DNA from: a virus | Strand: one strand, 5' to 3' | IMG/VR virus record: IMGVR_UViG_3300043409_002481 | Location: 11,700 to 75,699 of that record | DNA: 64,000 nucleotides | Shown here: in pieces, positions 4,539 through 52,760 of the stretch | How the letters are laid out: each line of letters opens with the position of its first letter | Position numbering within the stretch: the stretch's first letter is position 1 | Made by a program: the position numbers and the translations under genes | Notes under the pieces: model-generated | Told to the model about the DNA's origin: nothing | Databases searched by the model: none | The model's input: only the letters and a program-made list of their open reading frames with translations

Positions 4539-4809
4539 ATTTAGCGCTCTTTGCGATTTCAGTAATTAGTAAATTAGCTGCGGGGCTGCAATCAGTAATT
4601 TTTAGTAGTCTTTTCAAAGCTCTATAAGTTCTAGCTACAACCTTGCCAGACTCATCGCGAAAACTTCTACCTACTCCAATGAGCTTGCTGTCTGGGGTGA
4701 AAGAGAATGCTTGCAATGTTTCGTCATGCTCTTGAGGTGTAGCACCCGTAGATACATAAATAAAATGACCGTTTTTTTGGAAGCAATATTCAACTTGTAA
4801 TGTTTTCAT
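4519..4809 (-). CDS. Hypothetical protein
   Basis: ORF downstream of a TTGACA promoter and AAGG RBS. Confidence 0.55.
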   Translation of the reverse strand: MKTLQVEYCFQKNGHFIYVSTGATPQEHDETLQAFSFTPDSKLIGVGRSFRDESGKVVARTYRALKRLLKITDCSPAANLLITEIAKSAKYAQISA

Positions 4810-4825
4810 TGTCTTTTGCCTTGCA

Positions 4826-4872
4826 TGTTTAACTCAATGATCTATTATTGATCGATATCCTGTATTTGTCAA
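4826..4872 (-). promoter_or_regulatory. Sigma70-type promoter with 30-bp leader identical to 27825-27854
   Basis: TTGACA followed by TCGATCAATAATAGATCATTGAGTTAAACA on the minus strand. Confidence 0.7.
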
Positions 4873-5076
4873 CTACTATTTACAACTAATTTAGACACAA
4901 AAAAGACGACCTTGCGATCGCCTTCAAATTCTCAAAAAATCATTACAAATCCACAAATCAAAAAACAATCGGCTTTTTAGTTCGCTCCTTAGAATCTAGG
5001 TCAGTCGAAATTTAACGCGATCAAAATGTAGCATAGATTGATGTGCGATAATTAATCAAAATCCCTTGACTTACTC

Positions 5077-5706
5077 ATGGCAAAGTACTGGCTAGACACT
5101 GAATTTATTGAAGACGGCAAAACTATAGATTTGATTTCTATCGGTATTGTTTGCGAAGATGGGCGCAAATATTACGCGATTAATAGTTGGTGTGACTTTT
5201 CCAAGGCTAGTCAGTGGGTCAAGGAAAATGTTATAGCCAAATTACCTGATTCATTTGTTAATCCTCAAACCGCATCACCGTCAGAAGTTGAGGGAATGTT
5301 TTACTGGAAGGATAAACCGACGATCGCTAAAGAAGTCGCTGAGTTTTTTGAGTGCATTGGCAATCCAGAGTCAATTATTGATGATGGCTTATACCCTCGC
5401 TTTATGCGATGGCTAGGGTTTTCAAGTGTAGGAATTAAATTAAAATATCACTGGGAATGCGCAGAAAAGCCCGAAATTTGGGCTTACTATGCAGATTATG
5501 ATTGGGTCGTATTCTGTCAACTTTTTGGCGCAATGATGGATTTACCCAAAGGATTCCCCATGTATTGCCGTGATATTAAACAAGAATGCGATCGCCTTGG
5601 TAATCCTAAATTACCAGAGCAAGGCAAGGGTGAACACGATGCCTTAGCTGATGCTCTTTGGAATAAACAAGCTTATGAATTTTTGCAAGGTGTAGTGGTA
5701 AAGTAA
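5077..5706 (+). CDS. DEDDh 3'-5' exoribonuclease (Rv2179c/RNase AS-like)
   Basis: WLDTEF...LISIGIV...WAYYADYDWVVFCQLFG.M..LPKGFPMYCRD...HDALADA motifs. Confidence 0.85.
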   Translation: MAKYWLDTEFIEDGKTIDLISIGIVCEDGRKYYAINSWCDFSKASQWVKENVIAKLPDSFVNPQTASPSEVEGMFYWKDKPTIAKEVAEFFECIGNPESIIDDGLYPRFMRWLGFSSVGIKLKYHWECAEKPEIWAYYADYDWVVFCQLFGAMMDLPKGFPMYCRDIKQECDRLGNPKLPEQGKGEHDALADALWNKQAYEFLQGVVVK

Positions 5707-6440
5707 TGGCTGCAGGCGATCTCACACTCGTATATTTTGGGCGTAGCTATACCTTTACATTTAGTGGTAGCGCCATAACCCCATCGACGCAAGTATTTGC
5801 GGTTGACGATATCGTGCGCTTTACCACCACAGGCACATTACCAACGGGATTAGCGTTAAACACTAGCTATTATGTCGCGAGTGTAGGCGCAACGATTACC
5901 GTATCAGCTACGCAGGGGGGATCGGCTATAAGTCTTAGCGGTGGCAGTGGTACGCACTCGATTCGCGTTTACCTGAGTGTGGTATTTAGGAATTTTAGCT
6001 CTGATTCTCCACCGCCCCGCCAAAGTTCTCGACTATCAGGAAATGGGACTTTTAGCGTAAATGGTGCTTTTGTTGATACGGGCATAAGCTTTGAAGATCC
6101 TCAGCAATATAATATTCAGTCAAAAGTATCTATTGCTGATGCGCTAAAGCTTAAAGCGATGTGGACTACTGCTAATAATATAAGGCGCGAAGCTCAAGTG
6201 CTAACGGGTTCGCCATACTTAGAATTGATTGATGAAATTACTTTATATTTTGAGGAAGGGAAAACATCAGCAACCAAAACGCGATCATCTGTTGGCACTC
6301 CCTTTCAGCAAAATGGCGGTGTAAATTATTACCCTAAGCTGCAAGTAAAAATGCCAATCGAGCCAACGTTTAGCCCAGATACTGGCGTTGGTAATGTGAT
6401 GGCGGTGTTTGAATTACAGGAAACGGGGGTTAAAATATGA
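5706..6440 (+). CDS. Putative tail (distal-tail-like) protein
   Basis: Beta-rich virion-type sequence (TTTGTLPTGLALNTSYYV) in a coupled operon after the TMP. Confidence 0.6.
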   Translation: MAAGDLTLVYFGRSYTFTFSGSAITPSTQVFAVDDIVRFTTTGTLPTGLALNTSYYVASVGATITVSATQGGSAISLSGGSGTHSIRVYLSVVFRNFSSDSPPPRQSSRLSGNGTFSVNGAFVDTGISFEDPQQYNIQSKVSIADALKLKAMWTTANNIRREAQVLTGSPYLELIDEITLYFEEGKTSATKTRSSVGTPFQQNGGVNYYPKLQVKMPIEPTFSPDTGVGNVMAVFELQETGVKI

Positions 6441-8455
6441 CCGTTAATCTAAGCTCTCGCAATTTTTCTTTAACGATTGCTGGAGTAGATCGCACATCAG
6501 AACTCGATTCCATCACCCTCTCGCAACCATCAACATTAGAGCAGCGTCATGCACCAACTACAGGATCGATAACTTTAACTTTTAACCCTCTCAGATATAA
6601 CGAATTTATAACTATTGGCAATCCTACAACAGCAGCTAATTGGGCGGTAGAGGCGGCTGTAGTTTATCAAGTTGCTAATGATTCAGGAACGCTCGTTAAT
6701 TATTTTACTGGCTTTATCCTCAAGGAGCCATCACCGCCAAATATAGGCTTTAACGAGGGGACATTACAGATTGATGTTGGTGATATCCTTGCTTATCAAA
6801 GTCAACGCACAGTCGATCGCGATGTCTCTGGCGTAACGATTGGTACTAATACCGATCGCGACGAGATTGTGGTTAGAGTGCTGGAAGATGCGGGAATTAC
6901 AGCTCACTCTATCCCCTCACTTGGATACCCATTCAATACACCAATCCAAAAAACAGGCGGATCGCCTATTAAGTTTGTAGGCGATTTAGTAGGAGCCGAT
7001 CGCCATGTGCTTTACTGCAATGCATCAGGCACGGTAATAGCGTCGCCTATTGATTTAGCTGCTACAGCGATCGCTACCCTCACAATTGGGCAAGATGAGG
7101 AAAAGTTTCCCCCTGTTGATGGCTCTTCTATTCCCACGGTTACAGAGCTTACGATTTCGGGTGTAGTGCAAGAGCCTGACCAAGGCGAATACCCGATCCT
7201 GTCGGTTTTAGAGCGCTATATAACTTATCGATCATTAGGGTTTTCTGCCGAATATCGAGTGCTAGTGAATCGCACGACAGAGGATATTCAGTCTGAAAAT
7301 TACAAAGCTTCTTATTCGGAAATACATTATTCTGTGATTGAAGCCGATCTGTTGCAAGGATTTGTACTGAGAGAGGGGGATTACTTTGCAATAAATTTAC
7401 AAGAAGAGTTTACAGAATTTGATTTGCTTTTTAGGCTTAAACGAAAAACTTTAAAAAGATATTTAAGATTTAGCGTTGTTTCTAATTTAGTTGAAGTCAG
7501 TTTTCTAACTCCATTTTTAGAAAGCTATAGAGAGGTTGAAGAATACGAATACAACGAAGAGACAGGCGCGATTGCGGAAATTAAAACCACTATTTTTTAT
7601 GGTGAGGTCACAACCACTAGCGTGAGTGCTAGCCTTACCTTGAACACCATAACCCGCACTGCATATCAGAAAAATGGAACTTTTTGGGCTAAAACAGTAA
7701 CCACGGAGCTGAACATTCAACCGCCTGACGTGTTTGCTGGTAACGAACGGAGGAATATAACAATTAATGGCGCTGTATTTCCTGTTGTAGGCTGCGTGGA
7801 TAATTTACAGCCTACAACAGAAGAAAGCACAAGTGTAATAGAGACTAAAAACGACAGCTCAACCCGCCCACCATCAATCACCTATAGCGAGGCAGTAAAA
7901 ACCAGAAACAAAGAAGTATCAGCAACAGTAACCGCAATCCCTTTAGCTGGTGTGCCTAGCAAAGAGAAACACGAGCCTCTAACTGTGGATTGGCTAACTA
8001 GCGATGCGCAAGCTCTTGAGTATGGACAATTAGAGATAGTGCTGATTAATGGGCGCAAACAATGCCGATTTATGGTCACAGCATTGACTGATGTCCTCTT
8101 AACTTTGCGCCCTCGCAGTAGAATTGATATTGTTTTTAACGGGATTTTGTACAGGTGCTTAGCAGATGCGATTACATTTAGTCAAGATTTGACTAAGCGA
8201 AGCATCGGCTTTATGTGCGATGTCATCTCGACTAGCCCTGCTGATACGCCTAGCACGGTTTATCGTCCTGTTACTCCAATACTCTCTCTAAGAGGAGCTA
8301 TAACTATTGATGCGATCGCTTCGGGAGAATTTACTCAATCCTTTGATGTTGGCACGATCATTATTGATGCTGTTGTCAATGGAGTATTAGCGGTACAAGG
8401 TCAGATTGATGGTGAAATCACTATTGATGTAATCACTTTTGGAATATTAAATTAG
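6437..8455 (+). CDS. Putative tail tip/baseplate hub protein
   Basis: 672 aa, Thr/Val-rich, positioned after TMP and the Dit-like gene. Confidence 0.6.
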   Translation: MTVNLSSRNFSLTIAGVDRTSELDSITLSQPSTLEQRHAPTTGSITLTFNPLRYNEFITIGNPTTAANWAVEAAVVYQVANDSGTLVNYFTGFILKEPSPPNIGFNEGTLQIDVGDILAYQSQRTVDRDVSGVTIGTNTDRDEIVVRVLEDAGITAHSIPSLGYPFNTPIQKTGGSPIKFVGDLVGADRHVLYCNASGTVIASPIDLAATAIATLTIGQDEEKFPPVDGSSIPTVTELTISGVVQEPDQGEYPILSVLERYITYRSLGFSAEYRVLVNRTTEDIQSENYKASYSEIHYSVIEADLLQGFVLREGDYFAINLQEEFTEFDLLFRLKRKTLKRYLRFSVVSNLVEVSFLTPFLESYREVEEYEYNEETGAIAEIKTTIFYGEVTTTSVSASLTLNTITRTAYQKNGTFWAKTVTTELNIQPPDVFAGNERRNITINGAVFPVVGCVDNLQPTTEESTSVIETKNDSSTRPPSITYSEAVKTRNKEVSATVTAIPLAGVPSKEKHEPLTVDWLTSDAQALEYGQLEIVLINGRKQCRFMVTALTDVLLTLRPRSRIDIVFNGILYRCLADAITFSQDLTKRSIGFMCDVISTSPADTPSTVYRPVTPILSLRGAITIDAIASGEFTQSFDVGTIIIDAVVNGVLAVQGQIDGEITIDVITFGILN

Positions 8456-11339: not shown

Positions 11340-12047
11340 TCATAACTCAATAGATTGGCTAGGATCGAGCTTACAGATAGCATCGTAAATGACGCGCTTA
11401 ATCAGGGTTAGAGCGCCGCCCCATTTCTGGATTGGTACTGATTCCCATGCTTTCAGCATACGCATAATGCTTGTTAGCTCTGATAGGCGATCGCTTTCGG
11501 AGCGAGTGAGGTTGTCTTCTAGGATTTGAGTCTGTTGATATAGCTTTTTATATTCAATCGTGCTACCTCTCAGAGCCGCGTCTCTTCCATCGATCTGGAC
11601 TTTGGCATCAGAACTAACAGTCTCTAAAGCTTCTCGCAGTCTTTCGATTTCTTTGTTCTTAGTGGTTAATTCTGCACATGCGGAATAAGCACCATCACAA
11701 ATTGCCTTCCAATTTGTGATTTGATGCCTCAACTCATCGCACTCATTTAACGCCAATTTAAGGCTGTGCTGTAACGCGATTGTGGGATCGGGAATGGGGA
11801 GAAGGAATTCAGCTAACTTATCAGCACAGTACGCAGAGAAATCAATATCACTAGCATTGCTAATATCTGTTACAAACGCACCAACAAGCCAAAATTCATC
11901 ACAATACTGCGATGCTGTAAAAAGCCCAGATTCTCCACCGCGTTCTAATGTTAATTTCACAGGAATTGATTGCCCTTCCTTCAAAATTCTGTCAGCTAAT
12001 TTGTAATCTGTACTAAATTGATAATATTGGTTATTCATAATATTCAT
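11340..12047 (-). CDS. Hypothetical coiled-coil protein; N-domain related to 18332-18697
   Basis: YQFSTDY...EGQSIPVKL...YCADKLAEFLLP resembles YELSKDH...QGDRLACEV...RCTELNIEFYLP. Confidence 0.6.
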   Translation of the reverse strand: MNIMNNQYYQFSTDYKLADRILKEGQSIPVKLTLERGGESGLFTASQYCDEFWLVGAFVTDISNASDIDFSAYCADKLAEFLLPIPDPTIALQHSLKLALNECDELRHQITNWKAICDGAYSACAELTTKNKEIERLREALETVSSDAKVQIDGRDAALRGSTIEYKKLYQQTQILEDNLTRSESDRLSELTSIMRMLKAWESVPIQKWGGALTLIKRVIYDAICKLDPSQSIEL

Positions 12048-47395: not shown

Positions 47396-48142
47396 ATGCG
47401 ATTTAAATATAGAAATTATTTCTGCCAGAACGAAGCAACAGACGGAGATGTGATTGATGTAGATGCATCTAGCGGCGCAACAGATGAGGTGAAACCAGAA
47501 CCAGAAGAAAATGAAACAGTAAAAATCACGCTCAAAAAACTGAGATTGCAAGCCGAAGCAGCAGAGAAAAGAGCGAAACAAGCTGAGGCTCAACTCAAGG
47601 AAAGGGAGCGCTTAGATGAAGAAGAACGCGCAAAACGGACAGGCGATTTCGAGACCTTAAAAGAGCGTTTACTGACCGAAACAGCAGCTAAGGAAACAGC
47701 AGCTAAGAAGCGTGAAGAAGAAGCTTTAGCAAGGCTAGAAGAGAAAGACGCAAAGGTTAAGCAGCAATTTATCAAAAAGGAAATCAAAGCCGCCTTTGCT
47801 CAGGTCTTTAAATCTGAATTTCTTGACGATCTAACCAACAATCCAGCTTACGCTAAGCAGTTGGAAGCGATCGAGAATGAAGATGGTGAGTACGAGGTAA
47901 TTGTGGTTGAGTCCGTCAAAGATCGCACTCAGCGATTCAAGGTAGTGGACAAAAAGACTGTCCCCTTCACGATTGAAGATTGGGCTAACGAGATTGCAGC
48001 TAAAAAGCCGTCGGCAGCAAAGCCACTTAATCGCGCTAGTGGTGACAATATCCCTAATGGCAGTGGCAAACGTCAAACGAGTGATTTTAATCGCACCGCA
48101 GATCCGATGGACTTGGTGAAGAAGGGTTTAGGACTCAGCTAA
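47396..48142 (+). CDS. Capsid scaffolding protein
   Basis: Acidic N-terminus, long charged coiled coil, typical C-terminal ASG...G tail. Confidence 0.75.
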   Translation: MRFKYRNYFCQNEATDGDVIDVDASSGATDEVKPEPEENETVKITLKKLRLQAEAAEKRAKQAEAQLKERERLDEEERAKRTGDFETLKERLLTETAAKETAAKKREEEALARLEEKDAKVKQQFIKKEIKAAFAQVFKSEFLDDLTNNPAYAKQLEAIENEDGEYEVIVVESVKDRTQRFKVVDKKTVPFTIEDWANEIAAKKPSAAKPLNRASGDNIPNGSGKRQTSDFNRTADPMDLVKKGLGLS

Positions 48143-48196: not shown

Positions 48197-49648
48197 TTAC
48201 ATAGCTCTACTACTGCCAAAGCTTGATTGACGATTAACAGGAGGCATAGATGCGATCGCATATCGCAAACAGTCGATACCATGTGTCACTTGGTTATCCG
48301 CCTCCTCCTCAGTGATGTTGCCATATTTATCCTTTTTGCGGTGATACGATTGGCACTCTTCAAAAAACTGAGGCAATGTGTCCACAATCTTGATTCGTTC
48401 GTGGTAAAAATCACTGCTCATTAAGTCAATGCCCTTGATAAAATCATTTACCGCGCCCCTGACTTCTGAGCAGTAATTCTTAAATGGCTCTTTAAATATT
48501 TGACCCTCTTTCGGTTTCCATACTCGCAATGATTTGATTGCATCTGGTCTAGATGGGTCACCAAAGGCTCTGTTAACTTGCCACTTCATTGCTAATTTAT
48601 GGCACTCGTACAAAAAGTCATCTTCTAATATAGCCTGACCTTGCATTGTCCTAGGTACACGCCACTCATCAACTACAAACCAATGATAAAAGCCATCTTT
48701 GATAAAGGCGCAAACCACTAAAGCCCTTGGATTTACCGCGCCCCAATCCACTGACAATATGCGATATGCAAACTCATTAGGTAAGTCGCGATCGCTGATG
48801 ATATGCCTAGCGCTTAGCGTCTCAAAGAATTGCCCCTCAAACATCTCAAAAGATGCTTCCATTTCTTGACGGAATAGCCTTGGTGACAAGCTTTGTCTAA
48901 GCAACTCAATGTCTTCTGGCTTGAGGTGTGGATTGTCTACGCTTTTAAATTTAAAAGCTTGCCATACCATCGGATCGGCTATGAGTGCATTTTCGTAAGC
49001 ATCATAGGTATGATTACTTTTACCTTTAGGTGTATAAGTGAATAGCGCTGTACTGCCTTGCGTATCAGATAATGCTGGCTGAATAATTTCAGGGAAAATA
49101 CTAGCTTTCCAGTCTTGCCACTCATCACCGCCAAAATGCCATAGGCGCAAACCACGAGCGCGATCGCCATCACCATCATTCAAACCCATAATCATGAGAT
49201 CGGGCATATAGAACTTATACGGATCGGGGTTCTTAAAGGTAATCGTAAACTCTGATTTACTAACATTCTCGACAGCTTTGTGATTGCGTAGGATGTTTTG
49301 CAACTGCTTCCATAGCAGTCGCCTAGCCATAACCAAGGTAGGAGCAGCTAACACTACTACAGGCGGCGACACTGGATTGTATGGCGCACCAATCGCAACG
49401 CGCTCTAGGGCTTTGTATATCTGCAATACAGTTTTACCAAAACGCCGCCCTGACACTGCGATCGTGTATTTGGCGTGGCTATTGGCTATCGTTTGCTGTA
49501 ATGGATGTAACTGTATCTTCTGCTGTTGCGAGTATGTCTGAGAACGGGTTTGTTTCTGAGCTATCTGAGTCTCTACCTTTTCCCAAGCTCTTTCCATCCG
49601 AGCCTGTGTCGCTGGTAAGAGTTCTAGGATCGGTGAGAAGGTAGCCAA
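48197..49648 (-). CDS. terL: Terminase large subunit (start may be ATG 49597)
   Basis: SGRRFGKT Walker A, RGL...GGDEW Walker B, YTPKG, FRQEMEASF, SVDWG, HGIDCLRY. Confidence 0.92.
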   Translation of the reverse strand: MATFSPILELLPATQARMERAWEKVETQIAQKQTRSQTYSQQQKIQLHPLQQTIANSHAKYTIAVSGRRFGKTVLQIYKALERVAIGAPYNPVSPPVVVLAAPTLVMARRLLWKQLQNILRNHKAVENVSKSEFTITFKNPDPYKFYMPDLMIMGLNDGDGDRARGLRLWHFGGDEWQDWKASIFPEIIQPALSDTQGSTALFTYTPKGKSNHTYDAYENALIADPMVWQAFKFKSVDNPHLKPEDIELLRQSLSPRLFRQEMEASFEMFEGQFFETLSARHIISDRDLPNEFAYRILSVDWGAVNPRALVVCAFIKDGFYHWFVVDEWRVPRTMQGQAILEDDFLYECHKLAMKWQVNRAFGDPSRPDAIKSLRVWKPKEGQIFKEPFKNYCSEVRGAVNDFIKGIDLMSSDFYHERIKIVDTLPQFFEECQSYHRKKDKYGNITEEEADNQVTHGIDCLRYAIASMPPVNRQSSFGSSRAM

Positions 49649-50090
49649 GTTTTAATGCCTCATTTACGATTTTGTCTGGCGACCATGTATCAAGGTCTAA
49701 TGCTGTCCGTCCGATGCGTTGGATAGTGGATAGAGAGCCAGATAACAGGCTTATATCCTTTGTTGCTAACAGTGTTTTATTAACCTTAGCTTCATTCAAA
49801 TGTCCAATTATCTGCCCTTGTAATGCCCTCGCAACAGTCAAGATATCAGCATCAAACTTAGTTTGCTCCCCTGCTAGGCTTGATACTTTTTCTTGCTTTG
49901 ACTCTTGAGATACACGCCTCAAGAATATCTTAGATTGCTCTACCCATTTGTCTTTTGACGATCTTTGCTGAATATAATTAAGGCTCATCCCATACTTTGT
50001 AGCTAAACTTTGCAAAGATGGGCGTGTATCATCGCTAGGGGCTTCTATATACTCCTTACTAATTTTATCCCAATCATGTTTTGATGCCAT
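49479..50090 (-). CDS. terS: Terminase small subunit
   Basis: DWDKISKEYI...SLQSLATKYGMS HTH; directly upstream of and overlapping terL. Confidence 0.75.
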   Translation of the reverse strand: MASKHDWDKISKEYIEAPSDDTRPSLQSLATKYGMSLNYIQQRSSKDKWVEQSKIFLRRVSQESKQEKVSSLAGEQTKFDADILTVARALQGQIIGHLNEAKVNKTLLATKDISLLSGSLSTIQRIGRTALDLDTWSPDKIVNEALKLGYLLTDPRTLTSDTGSDGKSLGKGRDSDSSETNPFSDILATAEDTVTSITANDSQ

Positions 50091-50166: not shown

Positions 50167-50517
50167 TTATCTAGAAGTTCCATATTTCGCAAATTCAGAT
50201 CCCGCATCATAAATTTTCCCAGAACCTCCACCCATGCCATTAGTACCAGTAGCGCTTCTAGCATTCACTGTAATCAACCGTTTAGCCTTACCTCGTTCTT
50301 GCTGGGTAGAATTCGGGTTTTTAAGAATAGCTTGATTTTTAGCAATATTACCAGCCGACGCTCCAAACTTAGACTCAACACTACTACGCTGACCTACAGC
50401 GCTACGCTTAGCGCCGCCTCCACCACCGCCTCCCTTCTTGAACCGACCACTCATCTTTGCGGGATCATTACCACCGTAATACTGAACACCGTTGCTATTG
50501 TCTAATGATTCCAACAT
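50167..50517 (-). CDS. Basic Gly-rich protein B with conserved leader (candidate radical-SAM substrate)
   Basis: MLESLDNSNGVQYYGGNDPAKMSGRFKKGGGGGG; GAGG RBS. Confidence 0.8.
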   Translation of the reverse strand: MLESLDNSNGVQYYGGNDPAKMSGRFKKGGGGGGGAKRSAVGQRSSVESKFGASAGNIAKNQAILKNPNSTQQERGKAKRLITVNARSATGTNGMGGGSGKIYDAGSEFAKYGTSR

Positions 50518-51739
50518 AATCGACCTCATTAATTTCATTATCATCATACTCAATCATAGTATGAGTCCATCCATCCGCGCCATAACATAGTATAGGCAAT
50601 TTATCCACATCATCTAACAAATAATTACCATTGCTGTCTACAGCATAGCTGAAAGCAGCTTTGTTGACTGGATGAAAAGGTACGTTATGAGACTTCAAAG
50701 AGCATTTTAAGATTGTCTCAAATGTTGGATTCTTAGGCACTTTAAAACCTAACGCTTTCTCAGGACACATTCTAACATTGCTATCGATATAGTGATAATT
50801 TTGTGATGTAACAAATGTGGGTAGTAATGGAGTAAAGAACTCTACCCATTCCCGTTGCGTGAAAAACTCACGGTTTAACGTAGCACACCGATTAATAAAT
50901 TGCTGAACAACTGGGAATAATTTCGGGTACATCTTATAAGCGTCAAAAAAGTTTGAATACTTACCATTAGCAATACTGTAATTCTCTAACCCTATTGAGC
51001 TTGAATATTCACGACACATCTCTACAAATTCTTTCCTGTAAGGATCGCTATGTTTCTTCTTGAGGCAATCACTAATTAAATCTTCGCCTAATAACTTGCG
51101 ATCGCGATCTGACATTACCTTTTTCTGCTTAGTATTGATGTGCAGATTCTCCATCCATGTACCAAACACACCGATCTCTTTTAGCCGATCAAAGAACGGG
51201 ATAGGGTCTAATAACCAGTCAGGCTCGCAAGGGTTACATCCAACGATTACCGTATGACCTTTTGCGATCAAAGCTTCTAATAATTCATAGCGATGCTCTA
51301 AAGGCGGTGCGCTAGGCTCTATGGATTTGCGTGTTTCATCATCAGAGAAAGAGATCGACACATACCAAACACCAATCGGCATAAACTCTAATACCTTTTC
51401 CCATCCTTTACCGCCCTTGGTTTGCACAGAGTAAGGTATACCAAGCTCTGTCATGGTTCCCATAAAAGGAACCATTTGACGATAATTTGAAGCACTAAAC
51501 GGGTCTATGTGGTTGCTAACAATTACAGGATAGCCGTCTCTCAGTAAATATCCCTCTATGGTATTTCTATTTTGATAATCAGCTAATAGCCTTGATACGC
51601 CCTTAACGTCAAGTGTACGAGTAGGACTATTAAGATTTGCGAAACAGTAGGCGCAAGCGTGAGCACACCAATTACCGCTTAATTCTAGGGGTGCGGGTAT
51701 CTTAAGCAAACCGCCGTAAAGAGGCTTTAATCCATCCAT
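50495..51739 (-). CDS. Radical SAM protein (spore-photoproduct-lyase-like subfamily)
   Basis: CAHACAYC (CxxxCxxC), DPF, QTKG, ISFSDDE.RKSIEPSAPPLEHRY motifs. Confidence 0.88.
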   Translation of the reverse strand: MDGLKPLYGGLLKIPAPLELSGNWCAHACAYCFANLNSPTRTLDVKGVSRLLADYQNRNTIEGYLLRDGYPVIVSNHIDPFSASNYRQMVPFMGTMTELGIPYSVQTKGGKGWEKVLEFMPIGVWYVSISFSDDETRKSIEPSAPPLEHRYELLEALIAKGHTVIVGCNPCEPDWLLDPIPFFDRLKEIGVFGTWMENLHINTKQKKVMSDRDRKLLGEDLISDCLKKKHSDPYRKEFVEMCREYSSSIGLENYSIANGKYSNFFDAYKMYPKLFPVVQQFINRCATLNREFFTQREWVEFFTPLLPTFVTSQNYHYIDSNVRMCPEKALGFKVPKNPTFETILKCSLKSHNVPFHPVNKAAFSYAVDSNGNYLLDDVDKLPILCYGADGWTHTMIEYDDNEINEVDYVGIIRQ

Positions 51740-51742
51740 GTT

Positions 51743-52102
51743 TTATTTAAAAAGGTTGAGTTGTCCTTGCCTTTCAAGTCTAGCGGATTGAATACTAGCA
51801 TTACGAGAAATATCACCTGAAGTCATGGCGCGTTTTTGAAATAGTGTTTTCTCTCCTTTGACGCGAGTATATGCCCGTTTACCCTTCCCTTGTATTGTGG
51901 CAATCGCGATTTTGTTGTTACGAATATCTCTAAGCAATTTACCAGTTTTTTTCTTTATACCTCTTTTGTTTAGACCCTTTACATTCATTAACAGTCGAGT
52001 CCCCCCCCCCGATCCTCCCTTCTTGAACCGACCACTCATCTTCTTAGGATCGTTCCCGCCGTAATACTGAGTACCGTCACTGTTGTCTAGCGATCGCACC
52101 AT
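51743..52102 (-). CDS. Basic protein A with conserved leader (candidate radical-SAM substrate)
   Basis: MVRSLDNSDGTQYYGGNDPKKMSGRFKKGGSGGG; K/R-rich; ends QLNLFK. Confidence 0.8.
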   Translation of the reverse strand: MVRSLDNSDGTQYYGGNDPKKMSGRFKKGGSGGGTRLLMNVKGLNKRGIKKKTGKLLRDIRNNKIAIATIQGKGKRAYTRVKGEKTLFQKRAMTSGDISRNASIQSARLERQGQLNLFK

Positions 52103-52112
52103 AATAATCACC

Positions 52113-52760
52113 TTAGATCTCTTGAGATTCTAGCAGCATTTCAAACGCAGCAGTATCATTTTTTATCCCAATACTTTCCTTATACTCATTCCATCTTTGC
52201 ATAGTGCGACTGCCAACGACAATCGGTATAGGCTGCTTGTTGCCGCCACTGCGATCGCTTGCGTATGCTGGTAAGTCATTATTGTCTGAGAACTTGAGAA
52301 AGTCAGGCTCTTGATGGTCAATTATTTCTTGCTTTTGCTCAGCTAACTTTGCGAGTTCATCGTCAAAATATAGATCGCTGATGTCAATTATTTGCGCTGT
52401 TTCTTGCAGTAAATCAATATCTAAATCATAGTTAATCTCACTGATGCGATTGTCTGCAATGCCTAACCTGATAGCGCGAGGATCATCGGCGGTGGGGATA
52501 TCAACCCGTCTAAGAATTACAGGGCGCGTACCATCGATATCAAATACGATAGGCTCTGCTTCATCACCAAATAGCTCTTGTGCCGTCTCTAATCTTGCAC
52601 TACCACTAAATGTCTCGTTGTTAGCCGCGACAGTGATAGCAGACTGCCATCCTTCCTTTGAGATGATATTGGATAGCTGTCCCATACCACGGGGTTTGTG
52701 TTTATTGAGATTTTTTTCTTGAATACGAAAATCTGAGAGCTTAGCTTTACTTTTCGCCAT
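52113..52760 (-). CDS. ParB/Srx-like N-terminal domain protein
   Basis: KNLNKH...ISKEGWQSAITV...SGSARLETA...LGIADNRISE pattern of phage ParB-N proteins near terS. Confidence 0.7.
   Translation of the reverse strand: MAKSKAKLSDFRIQEKNLNKHKPRGMGQLSNIISKEGWQSAITVAANNETFSGSARLETAQELFGDEAEPIVFDIDGTRPVILRRVDIPTADDPRAIRLGIADNRISEINYDLDIDLLQETAQIIDISDLYFDDELAKLAEQKQEIIDHQEPDFLKFSDNNDLPAYASDRSGGNKQPIPIVVGSRTMQRWNEYKESIGIKNDTAAFEMLLESQEI

Follow-up and report, generated by a model that had tools for sequence, protein, structure and literature searches.

A recurrent phage module beside the terminase genes: a ParB-like protein and a minimal radical SAM enzyme with proteins that share an N-terminal tag

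The internal proteins IPI-III and the protein Alt of phage T4 have a capsid targeting sequence (CTS) that is conserved, a short N-terminal tag attached to unrelated, often basic proteins and to an ADP-ribosyltransferase (ART) (PMC3012670, PMC9503650). Such cargo diversifies fast and is encoded in linkage with the genes for the head and for packaging. In T4, the scaffolding core reads the CTS and the prohead protease takes it off, no dedicated enzyme being needed. In addition, comparative work has inferred that ARTs and Nudix enzymes whose genes adjoin those of the terminase and portal are packaged in the phage head and injected, and diverse effector domains (ART, Nudix) are found on the constant N-terminal module of MuF-fused and polyvalent effectors, likewise encoded beside portal and terminase genes (PMC9503650). 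The locus considered here lies in a stretch of 64,000 nucleotides (positions 11,700 to 75,699 of the record IMGVR_UViG_3300043409_002481, hereafter the window) from a single phage contig of 75,699 bp. It encodes a radical S-adenosylmethionine (SAM) enzyme, flanked by two proteins, A and B, that share an N-terminal tag, and is accompanied by a ParB-like gene and by the terminase genes.

Three other described systems resemble parts of this locus. The phage thymine dioxygenases known as 5mYOX (5-methylpyrimidine dioxygenases) are activated by cognate ParB proteins, which consist of a nucleotide-binding domain and a C-terminal module without a helix-turn-helix (HTH) motif, are encoded directly beside the enzyme and co-occur with terminases (PMC13229309). 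The PFL-activating enzyme (PFL-AE), a glycyl-radical-enzyme activase, is, like the enzyme of the window, a minimal radical SAM protein without auxiliary clusters, and it targets a Gly residue in a protein loop; the tags considered below also have a Gly-centred conserved core. Finally, the precursors of ribosomally synthesized and post-translationally modified peptides (RiPPs) begin with a conserved stretch for recognition, continue with variable sequence and are encoded beside radical SAM maturases such as SuiB/StrB and SkfB.

In our opinion, the genes of the window are best explained as a portable phage module at the head of a packaging operon, in which a ParB-like protein and a minimal radical SAM enzyme are accompanied by at least one protein with a short, lineage-specific N-terminal tag, a Gly-rich linker and a variable body. 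The module is real and recurrent, and no published description of it was found in the literature searched; a radical SAM partner is mentioned neither in PMC13229309 nor in a survey of the ParB-CTPase fold (PMC12704722). Six module and packaging genes are situated on the minus strand between 48.2 and 52.8 kb (Table 1) in the order ParB-like, B, radical SAM, A, terS and terL, and the six-gene order given in a preliminary description of this DNA is thus confirmed with all its members. The ATG of B is located 10 nt past the stop codon of the ParB-like gene and is preceded by an AAGGTG site, and the stop codon of B is 3 nt ahead of the ATG of the radical SAM gene. The ATG of A lies 20 nt within the 3' end of the latter, with GAGG 6 nt upstream, and this overlap is common to all close relatives. 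The spacing indicates that the genes form one translationally coupled unit. The real starts of A and B are the ATG codons at 50517 and 52102 and not the longer open reading frame (ORF) starts; the homologues agree with this.

Table 1. Features of the module and packaging genes in the window, and tag sets found beside radical SAM genes in distant loci
Feature	Position	Strand	Description or basis
ParB-like protein, 215 aa	52113..52760	-	nucleotide-binding domain of ParB/Srx type at the N-terminus, then an acidic linker and a conserved C-terminal module; without HTH
Protein B, 119 aa from ATG 52102	51743..52102	-	tag, Gly run, K/R-rich tail; AAGGTG Shine-Dalgarno
Tag of B, 34 codons, MVRSLDNS...GRFKKGG + Gly run	52001..52102	-	family alignment
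Radical SAM enzyme, 414 aa	50495..51739	-	partial TIM-barrel core and C-terminal domain
CxxxCxxC [4Fe-4S]/SAM motif, C25/C29/C32 (CAHACAYC, residues 25-32)	51644..51667	-	
C-terminal domain of the radical SAM enzyme, residues 260-414	50498..50962	-	weakly winged-helix-like
Protein A, 116 aa from ATG 50517	50167..50517	-	tag, Gly run, basic low-complexity tail
Tag of A, 34 codons, MLESLDNS...GRFKKGG + Gly run	50416..50517	-	alignment, pN/pS
terS (terminase small subunit)	49479..50090	-	PHROG 1206/51, weak; directly before terL
terL (terminase large subunit)	48197..49648	-	PHROG 2, E 7e-32; Pfam Terminase_6N
Tag set, three genes, MASKGGSWKSG.F			Oculatella prophage
Tag set, three or four genes, MAASGGHWK.G.F			
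Tag set, three genes, MASSGGHW.K			
Tag set, three genes, MAS.AVR.K.G.KFGG			Nodosilinea
Tag set, two genes, M.Q.LINE...NAQALGAF			flanking the radical SAM gene

The N-termini of A and B are identical in 29 of 35 residues (BLASTP E 1e-19), and beyond the tag no significant similarity between them was found (tail score 27), exactly the combination of near-identical starts and unrelated tails that had been noticed at first. In codons 4-30, the two DNA copies of the tag differ by 10 synonymous and 5 non-synonymous changes, corresponding to 0.60 differences per synonymous site (pS) and 0.078 per non-synonymous site (pN), with a pN/pS of about 0.13 for the tag of B against the copy in A. Seven tag copies from related contigs gave pS of 0.43-0.97 and pN of 0.015-0.12. 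These counts confirm that the peptide, and not its DNA, is conserved under strong purifying selection, as the preliminary description had held; the DNA ranges which it had assigned to the copies (~50431-50505 and ~52016-52089) fall inside the true ones and are shorter than their full extents. In the alignment of the tag, 22 of 34 columns are invariant. The tag occurs nowhere else in the 75,699-bp genome, where its only two copies both flank the radical SAM gene.

Neither A nor B has a family match in Pfam, PHROG or NCBIfam. They are small, basic and probably DNA-binding proteins, and the K+R fraction of B is 0.24. A look-up of B in the ESM Atlas returned only helical hairpin look-alikes, with scores of 0.84. 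Public gene calls start B at an internal Met and give an 81-aa product (P0121; the Atlas record begins from residue 39) that has lost the tag, and so automated annotation conceals the paralogy of A and B.

The tag and the enzyme were compared across close relatives; contigs with the tag were found by back-translated tag patterns among viral and metagenome contigs. A protein search with B gave 14 proteins of 81-141 aa, 12 of which start with a nearly invariant tag followed by varying tails. The six viral contigs that have the tag are exactly the six that encode a radical SAM protein of at least 87% identity. In 12 metagenome contigs, the tag gene is always placed between the ParB and radical SAM genes or over the 3' end of the latter, where the contig reaches so far, and in those ending short of the radical SAM gene it abuts the ParB gene. 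Altogether, in 18 further public contigs (6 viral and 12 metagenome) the tag gene adjoins the radical SAM gene as far as the contig goes; the objection that homologues of the enzyme might generally lack leader-bearing neighbours therefore does not apply to any of the close relatives. One further match to the tag (52%, in the 70-kb metagenome contig L120) proved to be a chance one, within a gene that resembles arginyl-tRNA synthetase and has housekeeping genes around it, and was dropped.

Behind the constant tag, the bodies of these proteins are exchanged. Beside radical SAM proteins of at least 87% identity, there are at least five tail types in the upstream slot and, in the downstream slot, three or more that are complete, and one close-relative contig has two tagged genes upstream of the enzyme. 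Along with the ART, NUDIX and GNAT cargo of other loci (see below), this variety supports the suggestion of the preliminary description that the tails are swappable payloads. The contig L002/L105 (IMGVR_UViG_3300042884_001293) is without the upstream tagged gene and has a second ParB-like paralogue, 59% identical, 1.3 kb further upstream. In the metagenome contig L114 (458-600), the downstream tagged gene stops just past the tag (...GGRIKKRAGCGWR) and may be a frameshifted or decaying copy.

Homologues of the enzyme number 123 in a large protein collection and are mostly viral. Using profile-guided scans, about 100 distant-homologue loci (29-44% identity) were found in viral contigs and in prophages of several phyla, the prophage hosts including Cyanobacteria, Chitinophagaceae, Blastocatellia, Chloroflexia and several proteobacterial groups; a tblastn search of 50,697 deposited phage genomes gave no homologue. 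The tag sequence of the window is absent from the distant loci, which have tag sets of their own. By a test of N-terminal paralogy within a locus (score of at least 45, which in a reversed-sequence null is passed by 9 of 8931 pairs), such sets were found beside the radical SAM gene in 18 distinct loci (Table 1), so a functional link between the enzyme and the leader is supported among distant homologues as well. Tag-like starts, recognised by a compositional rule, amount to 0.305 per kb next to the radical SAM gene and to 0.021 per kb elsewhere in the same loci, a 15-fold difference. A recognisable tag class is present in 57 of 93 non-duplicate loci, a lower bound, with 16 of the tag labels assigned by eye.

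The tag of the window (KMSGRF) is united with several of the other classes by a core, K-x-[S/G]-G-x-F. Of 41 tagged ORFs, 20 have this core, as compared with 39 of the 1119 ORFs of the background. The tag of the window resembles a minimal one (MSGRFKKGGGG; cf. MASAGGSFKKGGG in L009) with a conserved extension of 22 residues in front of it. One tag class occurs with at least five to seven unrelated large ORFs in the terminase position, and the class does not track the type of terminase or backbone. As linked genes share ancestry, the correspondence of tag class and radical SAM clade was not used as evidence of co-evolution.

Many homologues align with the enzyme of the window only to about residue 283, and the C-terminal domain differs between subfamilies that have different tag classes. 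In the second subfamily (L063-L083, L089, L090), the match ends near this residue and another C-terminal domain follows; one Gly/Arg-rich gene of 45-75 aa, beginning with MAG(R/S/A)(N/G)(N/G), starts 28-41 nt past the radical SAM stop codon and is kept between the loci. In high-GC DNA this gene is masked by longer spurious ORFs of another frame. Small "W-L-E" ORFs downstream of the enzyme in high-GC loci were dropped as candidates, because the overlapping MAG...Gly/Arg-rich frame is the one conserved between loci. The largest tag array was observed in L097 (8406-11647), where five or six consecutive genes start with MAGNG(S/A)RGG.GRG.GG, 2.4-5 kb downstream of the gene for a radical SAM protein with a long N-terminal extension (550 aa).

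The cargo behind the tags of distant loci is quite diverse. It includes small basic proteins, ART domains in L019 and L042 and a NUDIX domain in L047, and the tagged proteins, folded enzymes among them, reach 607 aa (196-607 aa). Three GNAT-like paralogues with a common tag (GSNGTAKGTAKGSKS) are encoded in L018 at 4583-5176, 5282-5872 and 7291-7884, two of them upstream and one downstream of the radical SAM gene; their bodies are homologous too, unlike those of most loci. In L029 (7225-7971), a ParB_N protein (Pfam E 3e-11), encoded 28 nt after the radical SAM gene, itself begins with the tag of the locus (MASQGWKKNKKGY...). A ParB_N-domain protein is likewise tagged in L032 (7208-7975), with the same tag on a divergent 93-aa gene, and in both loci no ParB gene was found upstream of the enzyme. 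The MuF effectors differ in that their constant part is a structural MuF domain; here it is a tag of 15-35 residues, found together with a pair of enzymes.

As for the enzyme itself, it is matched by Pfam Radical_SAM (PF04055) with E 1e-6 and 29.3 bits against a cut-off of 29.5. C25, C29 and C32 are the only invariant cysteines in 35 homologues. Their CxxxCxxC motif, the Pfam match and the modelled fold place the protein in the radical SAM superfamily, and since there are only these three invariant cysteines, it has no SPASM/twitch auxiliary cluster; one nearly invariant Cys is found in the C-terminal domain. The AlphaFold2 model (mean predicted local distance difference test, pLDDT, 91) gave Z of 12-18 with many radical SAM structures. 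The best match was PFL-AE (3c8f; Z 17.7, root-mean-square deviation 3.4 over 225 residues, Foldseek E 5e-7), followed by spore photoproduct lyase (SPL; 4fhc, Z 16.9 over 237 residues) less than one Z unit lower, by NifB, viperin and others at Z of 15 or below, and by the RiPP maturases SuiB and SkfB at Z 13.6. The enzyme had been called SPL-like, a label to which the modelled fold lends itself only in a tie with PFL-AE and which the sequence does not bear out. An NCBIfam scan (E up to 0.1) returned no SPL model, only the Rv2578c-type (28-29 bits), rSAM_link_UDG, PA0069 and ThiH models, all far under their cut-offs, and a profile search of the family against the sequences of the PDB gave no SPL chain and a single chance match at E 0.12.

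The 155 C-terminal residues of the enzyme, folded alone, had a pLDDT of 84; they resembled mostly winged-helix domains at Z of 5 or below and had no Foldseek match. When the enzyme was co-folded with SAM, a 4Fe-4S cluster and the segment 4-45 of B, the median was 0.21 against a mark of 0.32, which provides no verdict on binding in either direction and was not used.

The most conserved partner of the enzyme is the ParB-like protein. In the window it is matched by ParB-like PHROG 620/498 (E 1e-12) and is not recognised by Pfam from its sequence alone. The profile of the family alignment matches solved ParB N-domains (E 1e-6) at profile positions 8-92 only, the Pfam ParB_N domain is matched in 8 of 20 family members, and no HTH was found in the family. 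Of the 73 loci whose sequence extends far enough, 61 have a ParB-like gene on the same strand within 1.3 kb upstream of the enzyme. In 43 it adjoins or overlaps the radical SAM start, the overlap often being 4 nt, and a terminase follows in most loci.

Summarizing these data, we tentatively favour the view that the tag is recognised and probably modified by the radical SAM enzyme and the ParB-like protein, and that it marks proteins for delivery with the DNA. The tag would be the element that the pair recognises; the enzyme would probably carry out a radical modification in its conserved Gly-x-Phe/Lys core; and the proteins so marked would associate with the phage DNA or capsid and be delivered into the next host. 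The parts of this view are not equally secure. Linkage of the tag with the module is highly probable, chances are balanced for the packaging of the cargo, and for a chemical modification of the tag they are slightly less than balanced. The gene order, the tag, the purifying selection, the exclusive co-occurrence with the enzyme, the swapping of cargo and the recurrence across phyla are direct observations. Two findings make it most likely that the partner of the tag belongs to the module: a single tag class is combined with several unrelated large ORFs at the terminase position, and the ParB protein itself can be tagged (L029).

It is consistent with this view that PFL-AE, the top structural neighbour of the model, acts on a Gly in a protein, and that the ART, NUDIX and GNAT cargo belongs to the kinds of enzymes that published work infers to be packaged in the head and injected (PMC9503650; for the CTS of T4, PMC3012670). 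Resemblance to PFL-AE has its bounds, since no PFL-AE sequence model is matched and PFL-AE lacks both the extra C-terminal domain and a ParB partner. Moreover, the tags are without the glycyl-radical signature RVxG[FWY]: in K-x-[S/G]-G-x-F the aromatic residue is at +2 and not at +1, and there is no Arg-Val. In a more specific version, the enzyme, assisted by a ParB-like DNA clamp, would covalently alter the Gly-x-Phe/Lys core, cross-linking it or activating it by a radical for coupling, so that any tagged protein would be loaded onto the DNA during packaging and injected; we consider this version rather unlikely.

Several points weigh against the preferred reading, in which the tag is recognised and marks proteins for delivery. 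The structural neighbours of the modelled enzyme are tied between the protein-acting PFL-AE and the DNA-acting SPL. Its predicted C-terminal domain is no clear peptide-binding domain, and a winged-helix likeness would fit the binding of peptide or of DNA and decides nothing. Among the ParB-like partners of phage enzymes, only one has been characterised, and it is an activator of a DNA base dioxygenase (PMC13229309). In 36 of the 93 loci no tag was recognised. Since the tag is inherited along with the enzyme, linkage by itself may account for the co-variation of the two. Finally, modification, binding and packaging are deduced from the genes.

Because the ParB-like gene is the invariant partner of the enzyme, a point missed in the preliminary description, a DNA substrate has to be taken as a serious alternative, although a somewhat unlikely one. 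According to it, the two proteins would modify or repair DNA as an oxygen-independent counterpart of the ParB-activated thymine dioxygenases, and the tagged proteins would be docked on them or merely co-expressed, remaining chemically unaltered. The frequent 4-nt overlap of the two genes, the HTH-less architecture shared with the ParB of 5mYOX (PMC13229309), the near-top rank of SPL, the weak NCBIfam matches to Rv2578c-type and "DNA modification/repair" radical SAM models and the loci lacking a recognised tag all agree with such a pair. It does not account for the tag gene that adjoins the enzyme in most loci and in all close relatives, for the fact that the tag class follows the radical SAM subfamily and its C-terminal domain, or for the presence of tags on enzymes such as ARTs. 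In comparison with 5mYOX, the enzyme here is a radical SAM protein and not an Fe(II)/2OG dioxygenase, and the tagged proteins have no counterpart in 5mYOX clusters. In the 64-kb window, base-activating, transferase, sugar, glycosyltransferase, kinase or other hypermodification genes do not accompany the pair.

It is improbable that the tag is a capsid-targeting sequence of the type present in T4 internal proteins, read by a scaffold, portal or prohead, with the radical SAM enzyme doing an unrelated job. An N-terminal tag on unrelated basic proteins and ARTs does reproduce the pattern of IPI-III and Alt (PMC3012670, PMC9503650), and the genes belong to a packaging and head operon. The class of the tag is independent of the terminase and backbone type, yet the tag is always next to the radical SAM gene; in L029 the ParB-like protein itself carries it, and in the phage of the window no gene other than those of A and B has such a tag. 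It differs from the CTS of T4 in being tied to the enzyme and the ParB-like protein, with both of which it moves between unrelated phage backbones, and the two tags have no sequence similarity.

The module is not a classical RiPP system, and a cluster with the common N-terminus as its leader, the tails as cores and a small modified peptide as its product is very improbable, in spite of the conserved leader with variable C-terminal parts beside the enzyme and of the structural matches to SuiB and SkfB. The "cores" would be of 196-607 aa and would include folded enzymes, that is, the substrates would be whole proteins encoded in a phage packaging operon. In addition, the enzyme has no SPASM/twitch domain and no clear RiPP recognition element; no protease or exporter gene was found in the operon, where the only neighbours of the module are ParB, terS and terL; and the module is situated between ParB and terminase genes in phages of many phyla. 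From the phage-encoded modification system of the preliminary description, the functional link of enzyme and leader and the swappable tails are retained, and the analogy with RiPPs goes no further than the principle of an enzyme encoded next to a conserved leader. Least credible is an SPL-type photoproduct lyase working with SASP-like A and B that coat the packaged DNA, UV lesions being repaired after injection: the fold match to SPL, the small basic proteins and a sunlit-water host with the HIP1 signature of cyanobacteria (97 sites in the window, 0.86 being expected) would suit it, but no SPL sequence model is matched, and this reading fails to account for the ParB partner, for the enzymes among the cargo and for the invariant tag.

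The excess of HIP1 (GCGATCGC) points to a HIP1-rich cyanobacterial host. One of its copies is located inside the codons of the tag of B (52090-52097), and one tag-bearing relative (P0133) is named from a Pseudanabaena metagenome-assembled genome. On the strand opposite to terL, at 47396-48142 (+), a 248-aa highly charged coiled-coil-like ORF was observed, which may encode a scaffolding protein.

Should the tag serve the radical SAM enzyme and its ParB-like partner as a substrate or for docking, the module would represent a new class of radical SAM protein chemistry and a new way for phages to carry first-strike proteins, including toxin-type enzymes. It is spread among cyanobacterial, Bacteroidota, Chloroflexota, Acidobacteriota and proteobacterial phages and, if this is true, would provide another role for the ParB-CTPase fold outside chromosome segregation. 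If the tag is covalently altered as in the more specific version, phages of many phyla would possess an enzyme-dependent, programmable tag for protein delivery. A tag of 15-35 residues that directs arbitrary cargo could find practical use in loading proteins into phage particles. If the enzyme acts on DNA instead, a ParB-dependent radical SAM modification of DNA would still be new.

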